Virus record (IMG/VR): IMGVR_UViG_2690316148_000003
Source of the DNA: a virus
Lineage: Duplodnaviria > Heunggongvirae > Uroviricota > Caudoviricetes
DNA length: 14,938 bases
Direction: 5' to 3' (one strand)
Under the pieces are notes generated by a model. That model searched no databases. It saw only the letters and a program-made list of their open reading frames with translations, and was not told the origin of the DNA. Of the stretch, positions 1 through 10,822 are shown piece by piece. Position numbers and translations under genes: made by a program. Positions within the stretch are counted from its first letter, which is position 1. Every line of letters begins with the position of its first letter.

Positions 1-60
1 GCAGGAGCTGCCCGGGGTGGGGCAGGAGCTGCCCTAGGGGGTGGGGCAGGAGCTGCCCCC
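1..60 (+). repeat. Three tandem direct repeats of about 21-24 bp (core GGGGCAGGAGCTGCCC), truncated by the window edge; iteron-like
   Basis: Seen directly: gcaggagctgccc (1-13), ggggtggggcaggagctgccc (14-34), tagggggtggggcaggagctgccc (35-58). Unit lengths are multiples of 3 and lie in frame with the partial ORF. Confidence 0.6.
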
Positions 61-480
61 AGAACCTATCACTCTTTTGAACCAGTCAATGAACCTAAAA
101 ACATTATGTTCGAACATGTCCGAACGGAGTGTGAAAAAACTCCTGACCGTCACGAAGAAACCGACAAGGCATTCGAGGAAATATTCTGGTGTGCAGGCAT
201 GCGGAAAGCCGGGAAGAAAAACGCAGCTTCGGCATTCAGAACACAGTTCAGGGAATGGCGTAAAACTACCAGGGGTACGGCAAGCGAGTTTGCCACGATG
301 CTGGCAGAAGACATCGCATGCAGGAATGGTAAGCAGTTCGGATTCGACAGGTTGTTACCGTCGAGCTACCTGAACGGTCAGCGCTGGAACGACGAGAAGC
401 CAGAAACCATTCAACCACAATCCAGACCATCATCCGCAATTACCGTATCGAAAACTGGCTACGTGTTTTTCGACAGGTGA
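1..480 (+). CDS. 5'-partial ORF; hypothetical replication-module protein with Gly/Ala-rich repeat region (internal ATG at 106)
   Basis: Frame 1 is open from the first base to the TGA at 478-480. The track ORF 106..480 is the same frame, with no stop between position 1 and 106. Frame-1 translation of 1-66 is AGAARGGAGAALGGGAGAAPRT. Position immediately upstream of the primase suggests a replication role; function not recognised. Confidence 0.4.
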   Translation, partial: AGAARGGAGAALGGGAGAAPRTYHSFEPVNEPKNIMFEHVRTECEKTPDRHEETDKAFEEIFWCAGMRKAGKKNAASAFRTQFREWRKTTRGTASEFATMLAEDIACRNGKQFGFDRLLPSSYLNGQRWNDEKPETIQPQSRPSSAITVSKTGYVFFDR

Positions 481-483
481 ACC

Positions 484-591
484 ATGAAATCAAAAATCAA
501 ATCGCTACTGGTCGCTGGTTATAACCACGGCTGGTTAAGTATTTCGTTTGTCGATTTCTGGTTTAAAAATCTCGACCTCAGCAGCCATTAG
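484..591 (+). CDS. Small ORF, 35 aa (MKSKIKSLLVAGYNHGWLSISFVDFWFKNLDLSSH), hypothetical
   Basis: ATG at 484 lies 4 nt after the upstream stop, with AGGTGA at 475-480 as a possible RBS. Below the ORF-track size cutoff. No recognisable family. Confidence 0.2.
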   Translation: MKSKIKSLLVAGYNHGWLSISFVDFWFKNLDLSSH

Positions 592-599
592 CTCCGTCA

Positions 600-617
600 A
601 TGGCGTTTAAACGCCAT
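600..617. promoter_or_regulatory. Perfect 18-bp palindrome ATGGCGTTTAAACGCCAT upstream of the primase-helicase gene
   Basis: Self-complementary as read; followed by an imperfect inverted repeat CAGACG...CGTCTG (about 618-652). Function (operator, terminator or origin element) not determinable from sequence. Confidence 0.5.
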
Positions 618-707
618 CAGACGCGCTGTAGTGCGATAAACGACGGTCTGACGAATACACAGGATAAAAAAATATTGCGTCAGAATGCGATTCAGGACGG
701 TTAAAGT

Positions 708-3614
708 ATGAGTCCATCAGAACTTAGCGACCTGCTTTGGGCGCAGGTTGACAGGGTGGCTCCGCACCTGTTGCCAAACGGCAAGAAAGAGGGGCATGAG
801 TGGGTTGCCGGTAACGTCAACGGTGACAAGGGAAACAGCCTTAAGGTCAACCTTAGCGGTAAGAAAAAATGGGCTGATTTCGCTGAGGGAGACGGCGGTG
901 ACATGCTTGATTTGTGGATGGCATGTCGTGGAATTAACCTGCATCAGGCTATGCAGGAAGCGAAAGCATTTCTCGGTATCAAGGATGACGATCACCATTT
1001 CGATGCCAGACGTGAGAAGAAATTCTCCAGACCTGATCGCAAGAAAATCGCCCACTACGTTACCAGAACAGAATCCCATCTTGAGTACCTGCAATCGCGT
1101 GGCATATCGCCAGAAGTCGTAAAGCGCTACGAGGTTGTCAGCGGCAAGGTGTGGAATGGAGAACGAGAACTGGATGCTCTGGTGCTTCCGTACAAACGCG
1201 ATGGTGAGTTGTTGCAGGTCAAGCGAATCAGCACTGAGCGCCCGGACGGGAAGAAAGTCATTATGGCAGAAGGTGATTGCGAACCTTGCCTGTTCGGATG
1301 GCAGGCTCTGGACGCTGGCGTGAGGGCGGTTGTGCTTTGCGAAGGCGAAATTGATTGTATGAGCTATGCGCAATACGGCATCTCGGCGTTATCCGTGCCG
1401 TTTGGTGGCGGGAAAGGCGCTAAGCAACAGTGGATTGAGTTTGAGTATCACAACCTCGACAGGTTTGAGGAAATATTCATCTCGATGGACGTTGATGATG
1501 TTGGTCGTGAAGCCGCAAGGGAAATCGCAAGCCGACTCGGTGAACATCGTTGCCGTCTTGTTACTCTGCCGTACAAAGACATCAACGAATGCCTGATGAA
1601 CGGTGTTACCGAGGATGAAATCTGGCAGTACATCGGCACGGCATCCTACTTCGATCCTGAAGAACTCTACAGCGCGCGCGAGTTTTACCAGGACACTATC
1701 AACGCTTTCTACGGCAAGCAGCAGTATCTGTTTAATCCACCGTGGGAATCTCTGGCAGATAAATTCCAGTTCCGTGAGGCAGAGTTGACGCTGGTCAATG
1801 GTGTGAACGGTCACGGAAAGGCATGCCCACTGAATGAGCCTATTCTTTTAGCTGATGGGACATGGACTACTCACGGGAATGTAAAAATTGGCGATCAGGT
1901 GGCGTCAGTAGACGGCAATCCGTCAACTGTCACTGGGATATTCCCGCAGGGTGTTAGAGATGTTTACCGAGTCACATTTGAAGATGGTCGTTATGTTGAT
2001 TGCGCAGGCGATCACCTATGGGAGGTCACTAGTCGTGGATTCACGAAAGGCGAGAAACGCCGCGTGATAGATACCTTCGGGTTGAAGCGGTTGAGTGAAA
2101 CGAAGAGGCACAAAAATGGCGTTAGGATTCCTGAAATAACTGGTGACTTTGGCGACCACTCAGAGCCATTAGCATGGGTTATCGGCTCCCTTCTCGGGGA
2201 TGGTAGTCTTAGCAATGGGAGCGTGAAGTTTTCAAACGTCGAGCCATACATGATCGAGCGTATGAAGGCTGAACTGCCTGATTACAACTTCTCTGGAGAT
2301 GGTAAGGACTGGCTGATATCAACGGCGCGTGGTCAGGTAAATCCACTCATGGAGACCCTGCGAGGTTATGGACTAATGGGGTGCACAGCAAAAAACAAAT
2401 TCATCCCTCGTGTGTTTTTTTCCGCAAATAAATCAACGCGTATAGGCATGCTGTGTGGTCTGCTTGAAACGGATGGGTATGTCGAGAAGGATGGAACGCT
2501 TGTTTTTTCCTCAGCAAGTGAAAAACTGCGCAATGGGGTTGTTCAACTGGTTAACTCACTCGGCGGGTCATGCCGGACGCGAGTTAAAACTGGCGTGACA
2601 TACACATACAAGGACGATAAGCGGCATGGGATGGATTCATACGAGGCAAGAATCAGACTGACAAGAGAAATCAGGGAGGCCATCCGTTCACCACGACTCA
2701 ATGGCAGATTAACTGCGCATCGATTCGAGGGCTGTGGGGTATTCGTCAGGAATGTTGAAAAAATCGGCAATGCAGAATGCTTGTGTATTATGGTCGATCA
2801 CCCTCGCCACCTGTATGTAACCAGGGGATATGTGGCGACGCATAACACCGAGGTTGTCGGGCATATGGCACTTGAGGCAATGCGTCAGGGTGTGAAGACG
2901 TGCATCGCGTCACTTGAGCTGAAGCCTGGTATTCTCCTTAAGCGACTTACCCGTCAGGCAACGTGCTGCAAGATGCCGCCAGTGCTGGAAATTGACTCTG
3001 CATTTAAATTTTATGACGAAAGACTTTGGGTGTTTGGCCTGACCGGAACGGCGAAAGCCGACAGGCTGATCGAAATATTCGACTACGCTCGCCGCCGATA
3101 CGGCATCCAGTTATTCATTATCGACAGCCTGATGAAATGCGGCATAGGTGACGATGACTATAACGGGCAGAAAGCGTTTGTTGACTCGATTTGTGACTTC
3201 AAAAACAAAACAAACTCCCACGTCATTCTCGTTACTCACTCCAGAAAAGGAGACAGCGAAGAAAAACCAACCGGGAAAATGGACGTGAAAGGCTCTGGAG
3301 CGATAACAGACCTGACAGACAACCTTTTCATCATCTGGCGTAACAAGGCTCGCGAGAGAGCGTTACAGAGAGTTCAGAGTGGTGAAAAGATGTCAGAGAA
3401 GGACGAACAGCTACTGGCGTCTCCTGCATCTGTTTTGATGCTTGAAAAACAACGTAACGGCGAAGGCTGGGAAGGTGGTGTTCCGTTGTTCCTTGACGAG
3501 CAATCGCACCAGTTCCTGCAACTTGAATCAGGATCGCCATATAGCTACATCGCCAATATGCCGAAATCGGAATATGACGAGGCGTGGCGACAGGAAAACG
3601 TGACGGAGTATTAA
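708..3614 (+). CDS. Bifunctional DNA primase / SF4 (DnaB-like, T7 gp4-type) replicative helicase, interrupted by an intein
   Basis: 968-aa ORF. N-terminal region has Toprim-like acidic motifs (LCEGEIDCMSYA, ISMDVDDVGREA). C-terminal half resembles the T7 gp4 helicase domain: Walker A GVNGHGK...T, then IIDSLMKCG and VTHSRKG-type motifs. In-frame stop at 702-704 fixes the start at 708. Confidence 0.9.
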   Translation: MSPSELSDLLWAQVDRVAPHLLPNGKKEGHEWVAGNVNGDKGNSLKVNLSGKKKWADFAEGDGGDMLDLWMACRGINLHQAMQEAKAFLGIKDDDHHFDARREKKFSRPDRKKIAHYVTRTESHLEYLQSRGISPEVVKRYEVVSGKVWNGERELDALVLPYKRDGELLQVKRISTERPDGKKVIMAEGDCEPCLFGWQALDAGVRAVVLCEGEIDCMSYAQYGISALSVPFGGGKGAKQQWIEFEYHNLDRFEEIFISMDVDDVGREAAREIASRLGEHRCRLVTLPYKDINECLMNGVTEDEIWQYIGTASYFDPEELYSAREFYQDTINAFYGKQQYLFNPPWESLADKFQFREAELTLVNGVNGHGKACPLNEPILLADGTWTTHGNVKIGDQVASVDGNPSTVTGIFPQGVRDVYRVTFEDGRYVDCAGDHLWEVTSRGFTKGEKRRVIDTFGLKRLSETKRHKNGVRIPEITGDFGDHSEPLAWVIGSLLGDGSLSNGSVKFSNVEPYMIERMKAELPDYNFSGDGKDWLISTARGQVNPLMETLRGYGLMGCTAKNKFIPRVFFSANKSTRIGMLCGLLETDGYVEKDGTLVFSSASEKLRNGVVQLVNSLGGSCRTRVKTGVTYTYKDDKRHGMDSYEARIRLTREIREAIRSPRLNGRLTAHRFEGCGVFVRNVEKIGNAECLCIMVDHPRHLYVTRGYVATHNTEVVGHMALEAMRQGVKTCIASLELKPGILLKRLTRQATCCKMPPVLEIDSAFKFYDERLWVFGLTGTAKADRLIEIFDYARRRYGIQLFIIDSLMKCGIGDDDYNGQKAFVDSICDFKNKTNSHVILVTHSRKGDSEEKPTGKMDVKGSGAITDLTDNLFIIWRNKARERALQRVQSGEKMSEKDEQLLASPASVLMLEKQRNGEGWEGGVPLFLDEQSHQFLQLESGSPYSYIANMPKSEYDEAWRQENVTEY
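1821..2846 (+). mobile_element. Intein (Hint domain plus LAGLIDADG homing-endonuclease domain) inserted in the helicase Walker A motif
   Basis: Insert lies between GVNGHGK and TEVVGHMALEAM. It begins ACPLNEPILLADG (Ala codon 1821-1823, Cys codon 1824-1826) and ends YVATHN (Asn codon 2844-2846), followed by Thr at +1. Two LAGLIDADG-type motifs: LAWVIGSLLGDGSL (about 2169-2210) and IGMLCGLLETDGYV (about 2442-2483). Block-B-like GRYVDCAGDHLW and block-F-like ECLCIMVDHPRHLY. N-terminal boundary uncertain by one codon (1821 or 1824). Confidence 0.7.
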
Positions 3615-3692
3615 ATGACCATCTACATCACTGAGCTAATAGCAGGCCTGCTGGTAATCGCAGGCCTTTTTATTTGGGGGAGAGGGAAGTGA
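3615..3692 (+). CDS. Small hydrophobic ORF, 25 aa (MTIYITELIAGLLVIAGLFIWGRGK); possible single-pass membrane peptide
   Basis: ATG at 3615 directly abuts the primase stop (TAAATG). Its stop overlaps the GTG start of the next ORF (GTGA at 3689-3692). Central stretch is uniformly hydrophobic. Confidence 0.3.
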   Translation: MTIYITELIAGLLVIAGLFIWGRGK

Positions 3693-3967
3693 ACGATAGC
3701 TACCGACAGTTTGAAAACTGGTGGTCAAAAGACAAAAGCCAGTTCACAGGAGACGATGAATTAAAAGAGTTTGCCTGGGTGATATGGCAGGCATCGCGAG
3801 CAGCTATTGAACTGGATATCGACTGGCCCGAATCGAATGACGACTTTTGGAAAGATGGTGAAGAAGGTGCTTATGCGATGGGTTATGAGGATGGGCGTGA
3901 CAAAACGGTAATTGCAGTAATGAAAGCCATCAGGGCCGCAGGAATCAAAGAAAAGAATTTCGATTAA
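3689..3967 (+). CDS. Hypothetical acidic protein (about 92 aa)
   Basis: Track ORF 3674..3967 uses a TTG start. GTG at 3689 is preceded by GGGGGAGAGGGAA (RBS-like). No family recognised. Confidence 0.5.
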   Translation: MNDSYRQFENWWSKDKSQFTGDDELKEFAWVIWQASRAAIELDIDWPESNDDFWKDGEEGAYAMGYEDGRDKTVIAVMKAIRAAGIKEKNFD

Positions 3968-4098
3968 GCAAATATCACTTCAATAAATCGCTTTTAAGGC
4001 ATCACAATCGCTCTGTAGCGAGGTAAACGCGTGCAAGGTATTTATATAGCAGCGAGAATGAAAAATGCGTCAGAATACGTTTGAGGAGGTTTTAAGAA

Positions 4099-4314
4099 AT
4101 GAGTTCGTTGACTGAGCTTGTCCGCGCCGACTTTCAGGAGAACATTGGTCGTGCAAAGCGGTACTGGTCTGCTTCCAGACTTCCGACTGGCGAGAGACAG
4201 AAAAACGCCCCTAAGCCACGGAGCTATCCGCGTGACCGCGTTCTTCGCCGGTTGGTTAAAATCGATAATGATTTTCAGTGTGACAGAATTATCCGGAGTC
4301 TGGATTTAAAGTGA
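4099..4314 (+). CDS. Hypothetical basic protein (71 aa)
   Basis: Strong RBS GAGGAGG at 4083-4089, 9 nt upstream of ATG 4099. No family recognised. Confidence 0.6.
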   Translation: MSSLTELVRADFQENIGRAKRYWSASRLPTGERQKNAPKPRSYPRDRVLRRLVKIDNDFQCDRIIRSLDLK

Positions 4315-4324
4315 AGGAGTGAGC

Positions 4325-4621
4325 ATGAGCAAAGTATCACGAGGAATGAAAATATCGCTTATTTTCATCCTTAATCCGCATCGTATCTTTTTGGCTTCAG
4401 CAGTATGGCTGTCATATTTTGTTTATTGGTTAGCAGATAAATTGGATGATTTTGCGAAATGGCTTGAGAATTTTGCGAATGCGAGGTTTGAGTCATGGCC
4501 GCTTATCGGAGAGAAGATGTCTGACGAATTAAACCGGTATTACGCGGATAAGCGCAAGGAGAAGAGCAGGAGGGCAAGTGAAGCAATTATTCCTGCTTCG
4601 CAACGAAGCAATCAGAAATAA
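4325..4621 (+). CDS. Hypothetical protein with hydrophobic N-terminal segment (about 98 aa)
   Basis: AAGGAG at 4314-4319, 5 nt upstream of ATG 4325 (track ORF starts at GTG 4319). 3' end overlaps the ninB start by about 44 nt. Confidence 0.5.
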   Translation: MSKVSRGMKISLIFILNPHRIFLASAVWLSYFVYWLADKLDDFAKWLENFANARFESWPLIGEKMSDELNRYYADKRKEKSRRASEAIIPASQRSNQK

Positions 4622-5024
4622 CGCCATAGACGCCATTCTCTCACTACCCATCGACGACAAGTCACCCCACGAAGTCCACGTTAGAGAACCCAAACGCAGC
4701 AAAGCGCAGAATGACCGTATGTGGCCGATGCTGAACGATGTTTCGCGTCAGGTGCTATGGCATGGTCAACGGCTGGCGCCGGAAGACTGGAAAGACCTGT
4801 TCACTGCCCTGTGGCTTAAGACCAAAAAACTGGAGCAACGAAGTGCGCCTGGTATCGGCGGTGGCGTTGTCATGCTTGGCGTGCGTACCAGCAAAATGCG
4901 AAAGGCCAGCATGACTGAGCTTATCGAAATCATGTTCTGGTTCGGCTCAGAGCGCAACGTGCGGTGGAGTGATAACTCCCGGCGAGAGTATGAATGGTCA
5001 CAACGAACAGGGAGGGCGGCATGA
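4578..5024 (+). CDS. ninB: NinB (Orf-family recombination protein)
   Basis: 148-aa product resembles phage lambda NinB as recalled ([32 protein letters not shown]-terminal GRAA). GTG start at 4578. Confidence 0.85.
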
Positions 5025-5197
5025 GGCGACAGCGACGAAGTATTACCGACATAATCTGTGAAAACTGCAAATACCTTCCAACGAAACGCTCCAGAAATAA
5101 ACGCAAGCCAATCCCAAAAGAATCTGACGTAAAAACCTTCAACTACACGGCTCACCTGTGGGATATCCGGTGGCTAAGACATCGTGCGAGGAAATGA
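5021..5197 (+). CDS. ninE: NinE-family protein
   Basis: ATG at 5021 overlaps the ninB stop (ATGA), with GGAGGG just upstream. Product [38 protein letters not shown] matches lambdoid NinE as recalled. Confidence 0.7.
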
Positions 5198-5238
5198 CTA
5201 TTTATCCGGTGCGCCGCCAGAATGACGGCGCGGTGTGG

Positions 5239-5547
5239 TTAAACGAAGCGGATCTGGAGTTTTTTTCCAGTAGCGCGGGCGAATTTTTTTAGGGTGGCAA
5301 ATGATGGGCCGCTGATACCTGATGCGAGATTACTTTCCATTCTGGTGATCGCGGTCGCTTTTGTTCCCATTCGCTCGGCAACTTCAGCCTGAGTTAAGCC
5401 AGCTTCTTTGCGTGCTGCCAGCATTTCATCAAGCAGTGCGAATTCGTCAGCGATAGCGTCGTATTCTGCTTTAAAAGCCGGGTCTTCCATCCATTTGGCT
5501 GCCATTTCGTCGTGTGTCATGGTGGGGAGAGTGCGTTTACCAGTCAT
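5239..5547 (-). CDS. HTH (XRE-type) antitoxin / addiction-module antidote protein, HigA-like
   Basis: 102-aa product has a C-terminal HTH (GLTQAEVAERMGTKATAITRMES). Strong SD GAAGGAGG upstream on the minus strand. Overlaps the upstream toxin ORF by 11 nt. Confidence 0.8.
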   Translation of the reverse strand: MTGKRTLPTMTHDEMAAKWMEDPAFKAEYDAIADEFALLDEMLAARKEAGLTQAEVAERMGTKATAITRMESNLASGISGPSFATLKKFARATGKKLQIRFV

Positions 5548-5866
5548 GCTTAACCTCCTTCATTCTGGTTTCAGCTTTCTTGCGTTCGGCTGGCGGTGTT
5601 TTCTGCGTTTTCTTTACAAAACTATGCAGCATGATGATGCGTTTCCCTGTCAGAGTGCAGTAAAAAACACGCGCGATCCCATCGTTGCCTTTAATTCTGA
5701 GTTCGAAAAGTCCGTCACCAAAGGCGCTGGTGTGAGGTTCTCCGAGATTGCTGCCATATATCTTCATACGTTCAACGAGATGTTGGTATCGGGCACGCAT
5801 ACTCAATGGAAGCCGATCGACTTCCAGCCTTACATCTTCACTGTAGTATTCGATAGTGTAGTTCAT
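5537..5866 (-). CDS. RelE/ParE-superfamily toxin (Gp49-like / HigB-like addiction-module killer protein)
   Basis: About 110 aa from the internal Met (MNYTIEYYSEDVRLEVDRLP...RVFYCTLTGKRIIMLHSFVKKTQKTPPAERKKAE). Toxin-first gene order, as in HigB/HigA modules. Start uncertain: ATG at 5866 or 5878; the track's longer N-terminal extension is unlikely. Confidence 0.75.
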   Translation of the reverse strand: MNYTIEYYSEDVRLEVDRLPLSMRARYQHLVERMKIYGSNLGEPHTSAFGDGLFELRIKGNDGIARVFYCTLTGKRIIMLHSFVKKTQKTPPAERKKAETRMKEVKHDW

Positions 5867-5876
5867 AGGTATCAAC

Positions 5877-5892
5877 ATAACAAAATTGTTAT
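5877..5892. promoter_or_regulatory. Inverted repeat ATAACAA-AA-TTGTTAT at the toxin start; candidate operator for antitoxin autoregulation
   Basis: 7-bp perfect arms with 2-bp spacer, seen directly. It overlaps the alternative toxin start codon and a TATAAC -10-like hexamer on the minus strand. Confidence 0.4.
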
Positions 5893-6001
5893 ATGCATTC
5901 AAGGCCTGTAGTTGACGACAACACATATCCGGGGCTATATTCCTCACGCGCCAGCAAAATCTGGCGTCGGGATTGGAACCCCGGATATCGAAACGGTGCA
6001 T

Positions 6002-6021
6002 ACCGCGCTGGCGGTTTTTTT
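6002..6021 (+). terminator. Candidate rho-independent terminator (plus orientation)
   Basis: ACCGC-GCTG-GCGGT hairpin followed by seven T (6015-6021). Short stem, so moderate confidence. Confidence 0.4.
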
Positions 6022-6184
6022 ATGCGCTAAGCACAGTCACATTCGCGATTTATGGCGGGCTGTGTGGGGGCACCGAAAGGTGCGCCGGATGTTTCGACCG
6101 GTAGTTCCAACCCTGCACAGTTCGCCACCCGATGATTGGAACCTGAAGGTGGTGAGGTAAAAATTATCGAAACGCGAGGTCGTT

Positions 6185-6871
6185 ATGACTGTTCAAGTTG
6201 CTGTCAAAAACCTTTCCCCTGTCACTTATAACCAGATTCCTGTAATCACAACTGAGTTACTCGCCCGCCTTTACGGAACAGAAGCAATCCGTATACAGCA
6301 GAATCACCATGAAAATAAATCTCGATTTATTGAGGGAAAACACTTCTTTAAAGCTGTTGGTGATGAGCTCAAAAATTTGCGACTAGTTTTAAACGAGTCG
6401 CAAAATGAGGTGAAAATTTCTCCAAAAACCCGCTCCCTCATCCTCTGGACAGAACGCGGCGCAGCTCGTCACGCGAAGATGCTCGAAACCGATCAGGCAT
6501 GGGACGTGTTCGAAAAACTGGAAGACTGCTATTTCAGCCAGACTTCGAAAAGCGCAGGTCATCACGAGAAGAAAACCAGCGAGCTTTCTGCAAAAGATGC
6601 AAACAGTCTGGTATGGTTGTGGGATTATGCCAACCGCTCACAGGCATTATTCCGCGAACTGTATCCGGCGCTAAGACAAATTCAGTCTAACTATTCCGGC
6701 AGATGCCACGACTACGGTCATGAGTTCTCGTATGTTATCGGAATGGCGAGAGACGTTTTAATCAATCACACACGAGATGTTGATATTAATGAGCCAGACG
6801 GACCAACGAATCTTTCTGCATGGGTAAGACTTAAGAACAAAGAATTACCTCCTTCACTACATCACTACTGA
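6185..6871 (+). CDS. ORF6N-domain (antirepressor-type N-terminal domain) protein with an unassigned C-terminal half
   Basis: GAGGT RBS 4 nt before ATG 6185. N-terminal region ([16 protein letters not shown]...[22 protein letters not shown]...[15 protein letters not shown]) fits the ORF6N pattern as recalled. C-terminal ~110 aa not recognised. Confidence 0.7.
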
Positions 6872-6889
6872 CAGATTGCCAACGCAACG

Positions 6890-6914
6890 ACCCAGCTTCG
6901 GCTGGGTTTTTTAT
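6890..6914 (+). terminator. Rho-independent terminator
   Basis: ACCCAGC-TTCG-GCTGGGT hairpin followed by TTTTTTATT, immediately after the 6185..6871 stop. Confidence 0.7.
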
Positions 6915-6945
6915 TGCTGAATTTTCAATATGAGAGGACATGACA

Positions 6946-7200
6946 ATGAACGAGCTGATAAATAGCAACGCCATCAAAATGACCAGCATTGAAATCGCTG
7001 AGTTGGTGGGTAAGCGTCATGACAATGTGAAACGTACCATCGAAACGCTGGTTAAAAGTGGAGTTATCCGGCTTCCTCAAATTGAGGTTTCCGAAAGAAT
7101 CAATAACTTAGGGTTCAATGTTCAGTACGAGCATTACGTCTTCGAAGGCGAACAAGGTAAGCGCGACAGCATTATTGTCGTTGAAGGAGGTGTTGCATGA
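6946..7200 (+). CDS. Rha-family phage regulatory protein (short, Rha domain only)
   Basis: MTSIEIAELVGKRHDNVKRTIETL matches the Rha N-terminal motif as recalled. GAGAGGA RBS favours ATG 6946 over the track's 6940. Stop overlaps the next start (ATGA). Confidence 0.75.
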   Translation: MNELINSNAIKMTSIEIAELVGKRHDNVKRTIETLVKSGVIRLPQIEVSERINNLGFNVQYEHYVFEGEQGKRDSIIVVEGGVA

Positions 7201-7967
7201 ATGCCGTAATTATTGCCAACGCAGAAATCGTGCCGATTGAGTTTAATGGCGAGCGTGTTGTTACGTATCAAATGATTGCTGATATTCACGGGGTTCCAGT
7301 AGCCACTATTCAAAATGGCTATGCGCGAAACTCTGAGTATTTCATAGACAGGGAAGATACATATTTTATTGATTTTCATGAAAATACCTTTAGAAGGGGT
7401 TTTGAAATTCCTCCTCGTGGCATGCGAGTTTTCACTGAATCAGGCTATTTGATGCTGGTTAAAACCCTGCGCGACGAGACGGCGTGGAGAGTGCAACGTG
7501 AGCTTGTTCGCAATTATTTTCGTGGCCAAAAAGAAGATAAGTCAGCCTTGCCCGACTTCACAAACCCTGCTGAAGCCGCCAGAGCGTGGGCAAACGAATA
7601 TGAGCAGAAAGTGAAGCTGGAGCAACAACTCGCGATTGCCGCACCTAAAGTTGAGTTTGCCGATCGCGTTGGCGAGGCCAGCGGAATTTTGATTGGAAAC
7701 TTTGCAAAGGTTGTTGGTATTGGCCCAAACAAACTGTTTGCGTGGATGCGTGATCACAAAATCCTTATTGCTTCAGGTTCCCGGCGCAATGTGCCAATGC
7801 AGGAATATATGGATCGCGGCTATTTCACAGTGAAAGAAACAGCGGTCAACACAAATCACGGAATACAGATATCGTTCACCACAAAAATCACCGGGCGTGG
7901 TCAACAGTGGCTGACCAGAAAGCTGCTCGATAACGGAATGCTGAAAGTAACAGGGGAGGCTGCATGA
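7197..7967 (+). CDS. Phage antirepressor: N-terminal ORF6N/AntA-like domain plus C-terminal KilA-C (ANT) domain
   Basis: 256 aa. N-terminal ARNSEYFIDREDTYFI-type motif; C-terminal LFAWMRDHKILIASGSRRNVPMQEYMDRGYF resembles KilA-C. Translationally coupled at both ends. Confidence 0.8.
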   Translation: MNAVIIANAEIVPIEFNGERVVTYQMIADIHGVPVATIQNGYARNSEYFIDREDTYFIDFHENTFRRGFEIPPRGMRVFTESGYLMLVKTLRDETAWRVQRELVRNYFRGQKEDKSALPDFTNPAEAARAWANEYEQKVKLEQQLAIAAPKVEFADRVGEASGILIGNFAKVVGIGPNKLFAWMRDHKILIASGSRRNVPMQEYMDRGYFTVKETAVNTNHGIQISFTTKITGRGQQWLTRKLLDNGMLKVTGEAA

Positions 7968-8326
7968 ATGAGTACAGATTCACGCTTCCATACCCACCAT
8001 CGCTGAATACCTACTGGCGAAGACGGGGAAGCCAATACTACATCAGCGATAAAGGCCAGAAATACCGAAAAGACGTTCAGCAAATCATCCGCCAACTCAA
8101 GTTAGATATTTTCACCAAAGCACGACTCCGCATCAAAGTCATCGCAGACGTTCCAGACTCCCGCCGCCGCGACCTCGACAACATCCTGAAGGGGCTACTC
8201 GACTCTCTTATCCACGCCGGATTTGCGGAAGACGACGAGCAATTCGATGACATTCGCGTAATTCGTGGTGTGAAAGTACCAGGCGGAAGGCTTGGAATAA
8301 AAATCACCGAACTGGAGAACGTATGA
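7964..8326 (+). CDS. rusA: Holliday-junction resolvase RusA
   Basis: 120 aa. PYPPSLNTYWRRRG, PDSRRRDLDNILKGLLDSL and RLGIKITE match RusA as recalled. Confidence 0.85.
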   Translation: MNEYRFTLPYPPSLNTYWRRRGSQYYISDKGQKYRKDVQQIIRQLKLDIFTKARLRIKVIADVPDSRRRDLDNILKGLLDSLIHAGFAEDDEQFDDIRVIRGVKVPGGRLGIKITELENV

Positions 8327-8511
8327 ACGCCACAATTCAAACGATACCAGAGCTTCTTATCCAGACACGAGGCAATCAGACCGAAGTGGCGAGGATGCTT
8401 TCCTGCGCAAGAGGAACAGTGCTCAAGTACAACCGAGACAGCAAAGGCGAGCGTCACGTAATAGTTAACGGCGTCCTGATGGTCAAACAGGGCAAGAGGG
8501 GAAGACGATGA
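8323..8511 (+). CDS. ninH: NinH-like protein
   Basis: 62 aa. GNQTEVARMLSCARGTVLKY...VIVNGVLMV resembles lambda NinH. Located immediately upstream of Q, as in lambda. Confidence 0.65.
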   Translation: MNATIQTIPELLIQTRGNQTEVARMLSCARGTVLKYNRDSKGERHVIVNGVLMVKQGKRGRR

Positions 8512-9131
8512 GACTCGAAAGCGTAGCTAAATTTCATTCGCCAAAAAGCCCGATGATGAGCGACTCACCACGGGCTACGGCTTCTGACTCTCTTTCCGGT
8601 ACTGATGTGATGGCTGCTATGGGGATGGCGCAATCACAAGCCGGATTCGGAATGGCTGCATTTTGCGGTAAGCATGAACTCAGCCAGAACGACAAACAAA
8701 AGGCTATCAACTATCTGATGCAATTTGCACACAAGGTATCGGGGAAATACCGTGGTGTGGCAAAGCTCGAAGGAAATACTAAGGCAAAGGTACTGCAAGT
8801 GCTCGCAACATTCGCTTATGCGGATTATTGCCGTAGTGCCGCGACGCCGGGCGCAAGATGCAGAGATTGCCACGGAACAGGTCTGGCAGTTGATATAGCC
8901 AAAACAGAGCAGTGGGGGAGAGTTGTCGAGAAAGAGTGCGGAAGATGCAAAGGTGTCGGCTATTCAAGGATGCCAGCAAGTGCAGCATATCGCGCTGTAA
9001 CGATGCTAATCCCAAACCTCACCCAACCCACATGGTCACGCACTGTTAAGCCGCTGTATGACGCTCTGGTGGTGCAATGCCACAAAGAAGAGTCAATCGC
9101 AGACAACATTTTGAATGCGGTCACACGTTAG
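8508..9131 (+). CDS. Q: Late-gene antiterminator Q (lambda-type)
   Basis: 207-aa product appears essentially identical to phage lambda Q as recalled (MRLESVAKFHSPKSPMMSDSPRATASDSLSG...CRDCHGTG...CGRCKGVGYSRMP...NAVTR). Confidence 0.9.
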   Translation: MRLESVAKFHSPKSPMMSDSPRATASDSLSGTDVMAAMGMAQSQAGFGMAAFCGKHELSQNDKQKAINYLMQFAHKVSGKYRGVAKLEGNTKAKVLQVLATFAYADYCRSAATPGARCRDCHGTGLAVDIAKTEQWGRVVEKECGRCKGVGYSRMPASAAYRAVTMLIPNLTQPTWSRTVKPLYDALVVQCHKEESIADNILNAVTR

Positions 9132-9173
9132 CGGCATGATTGCCACGGATGGCAACATCTTAACGGCATGATA

Positions 9174-9210
9174 TTGACTTTTTGAATAAAGTTGGGTAAA
9201 TTTGACTCAA
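9174..9210 (+). promoter_or_regulatory. pR'-like late promoter with overlapping qut-like region
   Basis: -35 TTGACT (9174-9179), 17-bp spacer, -10 TAAATT (9197-9202). Closely matches the lambda pR' region as recalled (TTGACTtattgaataaaattgggTAAATTtgactcaa). Confidence 0.7.
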
Positions 9211-9366
9211 GAATGGCAGGTTTATATCCGTTCACATTCTTTCGGTTTTTTACCCACCTCATCTTTAAGTTGTGACTGCTCCCCGCCCTGTCGGGCGAGG
9301 GTTTACGGCGTTTTTCGCTAAGCGCACTGACATGCGCATCATAAACTCGGGAGCACATAGGAATAG

Positions 9367-9390
9367 AGCCTGCTTTCGGGATTTTTTATT
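9367..9390 (+). terminator. Candidate tR'-equivalent (end of a 6S-like late leader transcript)
   Basis: AGCCTGC...TTTCGGGATTTTTTAT resembles the lambda tR' 3' end as recalled and lies about 180 nt after the pR' start site. I could not identify a clean hairpin stem. Confidence 0.3.
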
Positions 9391-9391
9391 T

Positions 9392-9466
9392 GGGTCAGTC
9401 GTATAAAGGTCATTACGGAAGGCTGTTAACCTTCTTATCGTTGTTCGAGTCCACGCTGTCCCGCCA
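9392..9466 (+). tRNA. tRNA-like gene, anticodon GUU (Asn), with mismatches in acceptor, D and T stems; possibly degenerate
   Basis: Hand-folded cloverleaf: acceptor GGGTCAG/CTGTCCC (one T-T mismatch), perfect anticodon stem GAAGG/CCTTC with loop CTGTTAA, T-loop TTCGAGT, discriminator G, encoded CCA. Confidence 0.45.
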
Positions 9467-9471
9467 AATAT

Positions 9472-9547
9472 GCTGGTTTAGCTCTAATGGTAGAGCAGTC
9501 GCCTTGTAAGCGAATGGGTAGCGGTTCAAGTCCGTTAACCAGCACCA
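9472..9547 (+). tRNA. tRNA, anticodon UGU (Thr)
   Basis: Hand-folded cloverleaf: perfect 7-bp acceptor stem GCTGGTT/AACCAGC, D-stem GCTC/GAGC, anticodon loop CTTGTAA, T-arm AGCGG-TTCAAGT-CCGTT, discriminator A, encoded CCA. 76 nt. Confidence 0.75.
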
Positions 9548-9663
9548 TAACTGAGCCGTAGCCACTGGCTATCCTGAATTCATCAGTGACAGTTACGCTG
9601 CGGCCTTCTTTTCCCCTTCCCAATATAAGAACTACGCCATCCGTTATTTGCGGAGGTGAGGCT

Positions 9664-9879
9664 ATGAAATCCATGGACAAAATTTCAACGGGCATTGCCT
9701 ACGGCACCTCCGCCGGCAGTGCCGGCTACTGGTTTTTGCAGTGGTTGGATCAGGTCAGTCCGTCACAGTGGGCTGCGATTGGTGTGCTGGGAAGTCTGCT
9801 TCTGGGGCTTCTGACTTATCTGACAAATCTGTATTTCAAAATAAGAGAAGATAAGCGTAAGGCTGCGAGAGGTGAATAA
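9664..9879 (+). CDS. S: Class II holin (phage 21 S-type pinholin) with dual start
   Basis: [30 protein letters not shown]...[15 protein letters not shown] closely matches phage 21 S holin as recalled. Two in-frame starts (Met1 and Met4). RBS GGAGGTGAGG upstream; the track ORF begins further upstream at 9586. Confidence 0.85.
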
Positions 9880-10376
9880 TGTCGCCATCATTACGCAAGG
9901 CTGTTGCAGTTGCTATTGGTGGCGGGGCTGTTGCTATAGCATCTGTGTTAATCACTGGCCCAGGTGGTAACGATGGTCTGGAAGGTGTCAGCTACATACC
10001 ATACAAAGATATCATTGGTGTATGGACTGTATGTCACGGACACACCGGAAAAGACATCATGCCTGGTAAAACGTATACCGAAGCAGAATGCAAAGCTCTC
10101 CTGAATAAAGACCTTGCCACTGTCGCCAGACAAATTAACCCGTACATCAAAGTCGATATACCGGAAACAACGCGCGGCGCTCTTTACTCGTTCGTTTACA
10201 ACGTGGGCGCTGGCAATTTCAGAACATCGACGCTTCTTCGCAAAATAAACCAGGGCGATATCAAAGGCGCATGTGACCAGCTACGTCGCTGGACATATGC
10301 TGGCGGTAAGCAATGGAAAGGGCTGATGACCCGTCGTGAGATTGAGCGTGAAGTCTGTTTGTGGGGGCAGCAATGA
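9879..10376 (+). CDS. R: SAR endolysin (phage 21 R-type lysozyme with N-terminal signal-anchor-release domain)
   Basis: 165 aa. Gly/Ala-rich N-terminal hydrophobic segment ([20 protein letters not shown]) followed by a lysozyme-like body; matches phage 21 R as recalled. Start overlaps the holin stop. Confidence 0.85.
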
Positions 10377-10822
10377 GCAGAGTCACCGCGATTATCTCCG
10401 CTCTGGTTATCTGCATCATCGTCCGCCTGTCATGGGCTGTTAATCATTACCGTGATAACGCCATTACCTACAAAGAGCAGCGCGACAAAAACGCAAGAGA
10501 ACTGAAGCTGGCGAACGCAACCATTACTGACATGCAGCAGAATGCACTCGATGCTAAATACACGAAGGAGTTAGCTGATGCGAAAGCTGAAAATGAAACT
10601 CTGCGCGCTGATGTTGCCGCTGGTCGTCGTCGGTTGCACATCAAAGCAGTCTGTCAGTCAGTGCGTGAAGCCACCACCGCCTCCGGCGTGGATAATGCAA
10701 CCAGCCCCCGACTGGCAGACACCGCTGAACGGGATTATTTCACCCTCAGAGAGCGGCTGATGACGATGCAGATGCAACTGGAAGGGGCACAGGAGTATAT
10801 CCGCACTCAGTGCATTAAGTAG
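10373..10822 (+). CDS. Rz: Rz inner-membrane spanin (i-spanin)
   Basis: ATG 10373 overlaps the R stop. N-terminal transmembrane segment then a coiled-coil-like body; near-identical to lambda Rz as recalled. Confidence 0.8.
10578..10760 (+). CDS. Rz1: Rz1 outer-membrane lipoprotein spanin (o-spanin), embedded in the +1 frame of Rz
   Basis: Internal SD AAGGAG at 10564-10569 upstream of ATG 10578. Signal peptide with lipobox (LPLVVVGC), then a proline-rich mature part (PPPPPAW). Confidence 0.75.

Follow-up and report, generated by a model that had tools for sequence, protein, structure and literature searches.

A phage 21/Sf6-type tRNA-Asn/tRNA-Thr cassette in the late leader of a lambdoid prophage, with a candidate nuclease-resistant tRNA-Thr and a probably weakened tRNA-Asn copy

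The viral record IMGVR_UViG_2690316148_000003 (Caudoviricetes) is a stretch of 14,938 nt, referred to here as the window. It covers the nin region of a lambdoid prophage together with its late-regulation, lysis and packaging genes, and carries two tandem tRNA genes, tRNA-Asn(GUU) and tRNA-Thr(UGU), in its late leader. Judged by sequence comparison, this pair is the known late-leader tRNA cassette of the phage 21/Sf6 type, already annotated and present in the literature, and over 156 nt it is 98.1% identical to the tRNA-Asn/tRNA-Thr pair of phage 21 (OL657228, 39591-39746). We assign a probability of roughly 70% to the joint reading that this is the known cassette under the control of the antiterminator Q, that its tRNA-Thr would act as a nuclease-resistant replacement for a host tRNA, that tRNA-Asn is the constant partner in the pair, and that the tRNA-Asn copy in the window is probably weakened. 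What is mildly new is confined to two points, a private lesion in that copy and a testable prediction linking tRNA-Asn to the P2 nuclease OLD.

Identification and structure of the two tRNA genes

The window was searched for tRNA genes with ARAGORN and with the Rfam tRNA covariance model RF00005 (gathering score of 29 bits). ARAGORN identified exactly two genes, both on the plus strand and 5 nt apart, and both were also detected by the Rfam model: tRNA-Asn(GUU) at 9392-9466 (75 nt, encoded CCA, discriminator G73) and tRNA-Thr(UGU) at 9472-9547 (76 nt, encoded CCA), separated by the spacer AATAT (9467-9471, plus strand). The same coordinates, anticodons and 5-nt gap had been read from the letters alone in the initial annotation of this DNA. 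The covariance model scores tRNA-Asn at 45.8 bits (E = 3.4e-07) and tRNA-Thr at 63.2 bits (E = 5.3e-12), values far beyond chance, and both are genuine tRNA genes; the first element, whose standing had been in doubt, lies above the 29-bit threshold and is a real tRNA gene.

Full pairing of all four stems is found in neither gene. The mismatches previously noticed in the acceptor, D and T stems of tRNA-Asn are indeed present and correspond to three non-standard pairs (U4·U69, U13·U22 and U52·C62, respectively). The tRNA-Thr gene had been described as well formed, but its anticodon stem (arm GUCGC/GCGAA, devoid of CNG motifs) contains one non-standard pair, G27·A43, and its position 14 (window 9485) is a U where the usual base is A. 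Position 14 of tRNAs is almost always A, pairing with U8; in the family alignment of lambdoid tRNA-Thr genes most alleles have C there, and the window is among the few with U.

Real tRNAs commonly have single non-standard pairs, and membership in the tRNA class is not excluded by them. The conserved core of tRNA-Asn is complete (U8, A14, G18-G19, U33, a purine at position 37 (A37), G53-U54-U55-C56, A58 and C61), and its T loop (GUUCGAGUC), G73 and CCA are all retained. Similarly, tRNA-Thr keeps every core base except that at position 14 (U here; C in the family consensus). In E. coli, asparagine identity is specified by G34, U35, U36 and G73, and threonine identity by G1-C72, C2-G71, G35 and U36; all of these charging identity elements are present in the respective window tRNAs.

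Many lambdoid phages integrate in tRNA genes and carry partial copies of them at attP (e.g. thrW, argU), and the pair had accordingly been considered as a possible integration-site remnant or a duplication of host genes. Both genes, however, are full length, lie between Q and the holin gene with no adjoining integrase, and occupy the same mid-genome place in packaged phages such as phage 21 and Sf6. Furthermore, tRNA-Asn is only ~57% identical to E. coli asnT and tRNA-Thr only ~70% identical to thrU, which marks them as phage-borne and not as an att duplication. An origin as an integration-site remnant or as a recent duplication of a host tRNA gene is extremely improbable and is rejected.

tRNA-Thr as a candidate OLD-resistant replacement

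In cells infected by lambda, the P2 prophage nuclease OLD causes death mainly through cleavage of host tRNA-ThrU(UGU) at paired CNG motifs; phage tRNA-Thr(UGU) genes, including that of phage 21, resist OLD and rescue cells, with altered motifs and a shortened anticodon stem (PMC12445682, NAR 2025). HepS likewise targets Thr tRNAs, the UGU species included. The window tRNA-Thr differs from the tRNA-Thr21 of phage 21 solely at nucleotide 14, in the D loop, and has an identical anticodon arm. It carries UCG/CGA at nucleotides 28-30 and 40-42, where the host tRNA has CUG/CAG, and G27·A43 leaves four of the five anticodon-stem pairs. The sequence hallmarks of OLD-resistant tRNA-Thr(UGU), namely the UGU anticodon, altered CNG motifs and a shortened stem, are hence all found in the window gene, and by this comparison the apparent defect at G27·A43 corresponds to the published resistance feature. 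The tRNA-Thr(UGU) would serve as a nuclease-resistant replacement for the single tRNA-Thr(UGU) of the host, and would also supply decoding of ACA codons.

tRNA-Asn as the constant member of the cassette

The family of related loci was represented by 103 modules obtained from IMG/VR and reference records, of which 89 could be cleanly aligned for estimates of diversity, and 30 distinct alleles were used for pair counts. Nucleotide diversity (π) across the 89 modules is lowest in tRNA-Asn (0.0078, computed over the 48 positions that the search pattern left free), followed by tRNA-Thr (0.013) and the adjacent leader (0.041), and is highest in the inter-tRNA spacer (0.11), the most variable segment. 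Moreover, tRNA-Asn is present in 104 of the 104 family loci with a tRNA call, whereas in the same loci the second slot holds tRNA-Thr (92), tRNA-Gly(UCC) (8), both Thr and Gly (1) or no tRNA (3). With the lowest diversity and a place in all of these loci, the family tRNA-Asn is the element of the cassette that varies least and is always kept, and therefore not a decaying pseudogene. That tRNA-Asn is invariant while the second slot is freely swapped argues that the less-understood tRNA of the two matters more to the phage.

Two of the three non-standard pairs of tRNA-Asn are traits of the family. U13·U22 occurs in all 30 distinct alleles, and pair 4-69 is unpaired in 28 of them. No compensatory double changes in tRNA-Asn were found within the family, where only the single variants U4G and U69G, both making wobble pairs, are seen. 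The tRNA-Thr gene does present compensatory changes, with pair 5-68 appearing as GC (25 alleles), UA (3) or GU (2), and pair 49-65 as AU (28), GC (1) or GU (1). Diverged relatives of tRNA-Asn were sought for covariation analysis, but the candidates belong to the extensive tRNA arrays of big lytic phages, at another locus, and were discarded.

The third non-standard pair, U52·C62, results from a G-to-T substitution at window position 9442 (plus strand; tRNA position 52, in the T stem) that comparison with relatives reveals to be private. Over 501 nt, the window and the closest complete genome, that of E. coli FDAARGOS_944, differ at this base alone. The substitution is absent from all 5,426 complete E. 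coli genomes, none of which matches the 156 nt of the window pair exactly (the nearest reaches 99.4%). Within IMG/VR, a T at this position is found elsewhere only in one locus (L122), which is the same sequence as window positions 1-9724 (99.99% identity). The T stem is perfect (CGUGG/CCACG) in the dominant tRNA-Asn allele, which accounts for 82 copies. Relative to the family allele, G52U costs 9.5 bits of Rfam score (45.8 bits instead of 55.3). It also costs 6.6 kcal/mol in cloverleaf energy (-19.1 to -12.5 kcal/mol), reduces the computed cloverleaf fraction from 0.18 to 0.0003 and yields a minimum-energy fold without the T arm, whereas the family allele folds as a cloverleaf; the free-energy models behind these values take no account of tertiary contacts or base modifications. 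Unless it is a sequencing error, the change at 9442 is a private lesion of very recent origin, and the folding models indicate that it probably weakens or disables the tRNA-Asn copy of the window. The gene thus provides a clean example in which one degenerate-looking trait is a single private mutation and the others are fixed traits of the family.

These results bear directly on the proposal, made in the initial annotation, that the first element is degenerate and may be a pseudo-tRNA. A decaying, non-functional gene would be in keeping with its three non-standard pairs, with a score of 45.8 bits against the 72.6 bits of host asnT, and with the collapse of the T arm and cloverleaf fraction under G52U, a change that may well impair this copy. 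Nevertheless, such an explanation applies at most to the window copy, since the other two mismatches are fixed in the family, whose allele reaches 55.3 bits and folds as a cloverleaf, and the gene, more conserved than its neighbors, is the least variable segment of the module and is kept in the viable phages phage 21, Sf6 and SfI. In the window copy itself, the core (U8, A14, GG, U33, A37, T loop, G73 and CCA) is retained and the score remains above threshold. We view a pseudo-tRNA as a minority possibility, albeit an appreciable one, and favor the reading of tRNA-Asn as the constant partner of tRNA-Thr, with this particular copy probably weakened.

The second slot presents several further variants. 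In ST160 (L134 681-749) it is occupied by a degenerate, 72-nt Leu(UAA)-like gene that shares its 5' end with tRNA-Thr, scores 42.1 bits and is not called by ARAGORN. JLK-2012 (L135 760-834) has an added tRNA-Gly(UCC), near-identical to host glyT except that its anticodon loop has A38G and that pair 6-67 shows a compensatory change. Chimeric tRNA-Thr genes, combining the phage allele over the first ~25 nt with a host-like remainder, are found in eleven loci (L117, L011, L130, L034, L086, L088, L098, L105, L106, L118 and L135). The final 59 nt of the L117 gene match E. coli K-12 thrU without a difference, and this identity suggests recombination or gene conversion between the phage and host genes. 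The commonest chimera has CUG/CAU and three of the five anticodon-stem pairs. The generalization that all tRNAs in the late-leader slot are free of the OLD motif proved false, for the phage tRNA-Gly(UCC) has CAG/CUG and chimeric tRNA-Thr allele A has CUG/CAG.

The anticodon stem of tRNA-Asn offers a lead on its possible role. Host asnT has CGG at positions 28-30, CCG at 40-42 and A37, as described for OLD substrates; AAG/CUU stands at the same positions in the phage tRNA-Asn, which is without the motif and may therefore be a second resistant replacement. We put forward, as a tentative and on balance unlikely proposal, that the family-wide defects of tRNA-Asn, among them the persistent U4·U69 of its acceptor stem, and its anticodon stem are adaptations and that tRNA-Asn(GUU) is a second nuclease-resistant tRNA beside the anti-OLD tRNA-Thr. 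If true, the Asn-Thr cassette would be a two-tRNA kit of lambdoid phages against the tRNA-cutting defenses of rival prophages (P2-OLD and other tRNases).

Late-leader context and predicted expression

The late-gene antiterminator Q of the window (8508-9131, plus strand, 207 aa) is of the lambda type, with 205 of its 207 residues identical to lambda Q and a match to PHROG 127 (anti-termination protein Q-like). Downstream of it, the late promoter pR' (9174-9202, plus strand; TTGACT, 17-nt spacer, TAAATT), together with a lambda-type Q-binding region, aligns near base for base with lambda pR', and is the sole promoter-like site identified by a consensus scan of 9000-9900. The tR' terminator (9346-9388, plus strand) consists of a hairpin at 9346-9380 followed by a U tract; it was not flagged by a simple terminator scan and was detected through its alignment with lambda tR' (TAGAGCCTGC...TTTCGGGATTTTTTAT) and through the computed fold, in which the hairpin forms. 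The terminator ends at ~9388, 3 nt 5' of tRNA-Asn, and the first gene of the lysis cassette, encoding a class II (phage 21-type) holin recognized by PHROG holin families and by the antiholin/pinholin annotation in phage 21, spans 9664-9879 (plus strand). The placement of the tRNAs between tR' and the holin gene, as originally described, is therefore correct.

Because the only upstream promoter-like site is pR' and tR' ends 3 nt before tRNA-Asn, read-through by Q-modified polymerase would be needed for expression of the pair, and this anatomy predicts that the tRNAs are made only when such polymerase reads through tR' during lytic growth. Host RNase P would then cut their 5' ends in the long late transcript, and a host endonuclease or exonuclease would trim their 3' ends, the CCA being part of each gene. 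The identity elements point to charging with Asn and Thr. The possibility that the tRNAs have their own promoter was also considered; the consensus scan returned none and the terminator abuts the first gene, though a weak promoter may be present.

The region also contains a mosaic junction (8508-10822), in which lambda-type Q (99%), pR' and tR' are followed by a phage 21-type cassette and leader tail. The holin, endolysin and Rz genes of the window follow the phage 21 order, and the left junction of the module falls within the U tract of the terminator.

The leader downstream of the tRNAs, 9548-9660, had been described as lambda-like. This holds for ~9548-9607, as the 60-nt segment 3' of tRNA-Thr is common to lambda, phage 21 and Sf6, but beyond it the leader up to 9664 is phage 21-like instead. 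The leader harbors a hairpin (9555-9604, plus strand; minimum free energy of -23.4 kcal/mol, z = -4.1) that is conserved in lambda, phage 21, Sf6 and ~40 variants, with 97.6% of cells paired across 29 variants; in the window, the U-rich tail CCUUCUUUUCC comes after it. The hairpin may act in RNA processing or as a further terminator within the leader. It is conceivable that the cassette is mainly an RNA element, in which excision of the tRNAs gives the lysis mRNA a new 5' end, or in which the position between tR' and this hairpin lets leaky read-through from the constitutive pR' make tRNAs in lysogens without lysis. Such a role would fit the abutment of tR' and tRNA-Asn and the presence of a strong, conserved hairpin with a U-rich tail after tRNA-Thr. 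Nonetheless, the hairpin has no significant covariation support (the observed score is matched in 76 of 500 shuffles), the simple terminator scan does not flag it, its U-rich tail is present in the window and phage 21 but missing where lambda-type holins follow, and lambda manages with an unrelated spacer. We regard a primary role as an RNA element as quite improbable.

Evidence against the proposed function and the case for codon supply

Several observations weigh against the proposal of a Q-dependent cassette supplying a nuclease-resistant tRNA-Thr. We found no literature on the expression of the cassette tRNAs, nor on their processing or charging at this locus, and the authors of the phage L study state that the mode of expression of tRNA genes at the late-leader position is unknown to them (PMC8022706). 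The anti-OLD result was obtained with plasmid-expressed tRNA and not with the native late transcript of phage 21, and host tRNA-Asn features there only in a comparison of cleavage kinetics, its significance as an OLD substrate being unstated in the text (PMC12445682). OLD is triggered early, by Gam, and the cassette is predicted to be expressed late. The window tRNA-Thr has U14, compared to C14 in the tested allele; the C14 allele of phage 21 is functional (PMC12445682). In addition, the tRNA-Thr of phage P7 keeps both CNG motifs and a full 5-bp anticodon stem, and OLD resistance is therefore not general to the tRNA-Thr lineage. A final set of points comes from codon usage, assessed by comparing window genes with 42 K-12 genes. 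The share of ACA among Thr codons is 23.7% in the window and 10.2% in K-12 (2.3-fold; odds ratio 2.7, p = 3e-6), but it reaches 31% in early genes and 17% in late genes (late vs host, p = 0.06), a poor fit with supply from the late transcript. Asn codons show no bias, AAC accounting for 58% in the window and 63% in K-12, with 43 and 38 Asn codons per 1000, respectively, and SfI is likewise without Asn codon bias (PMC3636060).

Codon usage is also the basis for an alternative in which the tRNAs only top up codons favored by the phage, chiefly ACA, and have no anti-nuclease role. The host already has several tRNA-Asn genes (four asn tRNA genes in E. coli K-12), Asn codon bias is absent from the window, and ACA enrichment is weaker in the late genes, those translated when the tRNAs would be made. 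The alternative does draw on the ACA enrichment of the window, on the same bias in SfI (PMC3636060) and on the phage L capsid gene, in which 24 of 25 Asn codons are AAC (PMC8022706). The altered anticodon stem of tRNA-Thr seen across the family, however, is explained by nuclease resistance and not by decoding (PMC12445682). Codon supply as the only function is doubtful; the idea is only partly supported, and an anti-OLD function of tRNA-Thr is better supported.

Other features of the window

Upstream of Q, the window encodes a primase, NinB, NinE, a Gp49/HTH pair, two Ant proteins, RusA and NinH. Past the tRNAs lie the genes for the class II holin, endolysin and Rz spanin, as well as those for an HNH endonuclease, both terminase subunits (small and large) and the portal protein. 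At 5935-6132, three consecutive Rfam matches (c4-a1b1 target, isrK and C4 antisense RNA; 50.1, 72.1 and 75.2 bits) lie immediately 5' of the antirepressor gene ant (6185-6871), an arrangement resembling P1 immI-style antisense control of Ant within a lambdoid nin region. On the minus strand, at 5239-6001, Gp49-like (PF05973) and HTH_3 genes overlap as they do in toxin-antitoxin pairs of the HigB/HigA type, and at this position FDAARGOS_944 has a pair annotated as RelE/ParE-family toxin and HigA-family antitoxin. A short open reading frame (6940-7200) located between the two Ant genes matches the Rha regulator family over the first 27 family positions only; its counterpart in FDAARGOS_944 is annotated as a truncated Rha pseudogene.

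Comparison with known late-leader cassettes

In phage 21 and its relatives, the gene order, the 5-nt spacing, the start after the late-leader terminator and the leader hairpin are all as in the window. The tRNA-Asn of phage 21 begins at the base after the annotated late terminator, and pinholin/SAR-endolysin lysis genes come next, again as in the window. The two differ in that the window has lambda-type Q, pR' and tR' instead of those of the phage 21 type, carries the private G52U change in tRNA-Asn, and has U14 in tRNA-Thr where phage 21 has C14. In Sf6, the pair is annotated as 'similar to phage 21' and has the same layout after the late terminator. The pair is also present or annotated in SfI, BTP1, HK446, Kapi1, mEp506 and others, and is found in 369 of the 5,426 complete E. 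coli genomes, where the NCBI pipeline labels it tRNA-Asn and tRNA-Thr. Known copies of the cassette always lie directly 3' of the late-leader terminator and 5' of the lysis genes. Sf6, ST64T, PS3 and phage 21 are named as carriers of the pair in the SfI paper (PMC3636060), the phage L paper reports tRNA genes at the late-leader position in some P22-like phages (PMC8022706), and the epsilon34 paper marks tRNA genes in P22-like prophages (PMC2629481).

A scan of one genome per species yielded five matches, in Escherichia sp., E. albertii, Shimwellia and gut metagenome-assembled genome (MAG) contigs binned as Segatella and Collinsella. The latter (L128 and L131) are short contigs binned in Segatella copri and Collinsella sp. 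MAGs that carry an enterobacterial tRNA-Asn module, and are probably misbinned phage or prophage sequences.

Other phages differ in what follows tRNA-Asn or in the content of the slot as a whole. Phage L, ST64T and ST160 combine Asn with a Leu-like gene, so that their second tRNA differs from that of the window, and JLK-2012 has Asn, Thr and Gly. In 933W-type phages, the ileZ-argN-argO tRNA genes upstream of stx presumably occupy the equivalent late-leader slot; no toxin or other moron is present at this slot in the window.

In lambda, 163 nt of unrelated sequence lie between the same flanks that enclose the 159-nt module of the window. The tRNAs had been interpreted as an insertion, and they are indeed absent from lambda, but the shared flanks around an unrelated spacer indicate a replacement, and the window module is therefore an alternative cassette and not a simple insertion. 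The lambda spacer was also considered as a decayed tRNA pair, and this was rejected: it gave no tRNA match up to E = 10, and its local alignment score of 18 compares with 15.1 ± 2.0 for shuffles, of which a fraction of 0.12 score as high or higher.

Beyond the lambdoid phages, P7, a member of the P1 family, carries tRNA-Asn(GUU), a 5-nt spacer and tRNA-Thr(UGU) (L136 1425-1575), with the same anticodons, order and spacing as the window. Its tRNA-Thr is ~80% identical to the lambdoid one, with compensatory stem changes, and the tRNA-Asn genes are much more divergent. Unlike those of the window, the P7 tRNAs are fully canonical (74.5 and 74.9 bits), and they lie 3' of the annotated C1-controlled Op(ban) operators of the ban operon, under control of the C1 repressor and not of Q. 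On this comparison, the pairing of Asn(GUU) with Thr(UGU) recurs in an unrelated phage group, P1/P7.

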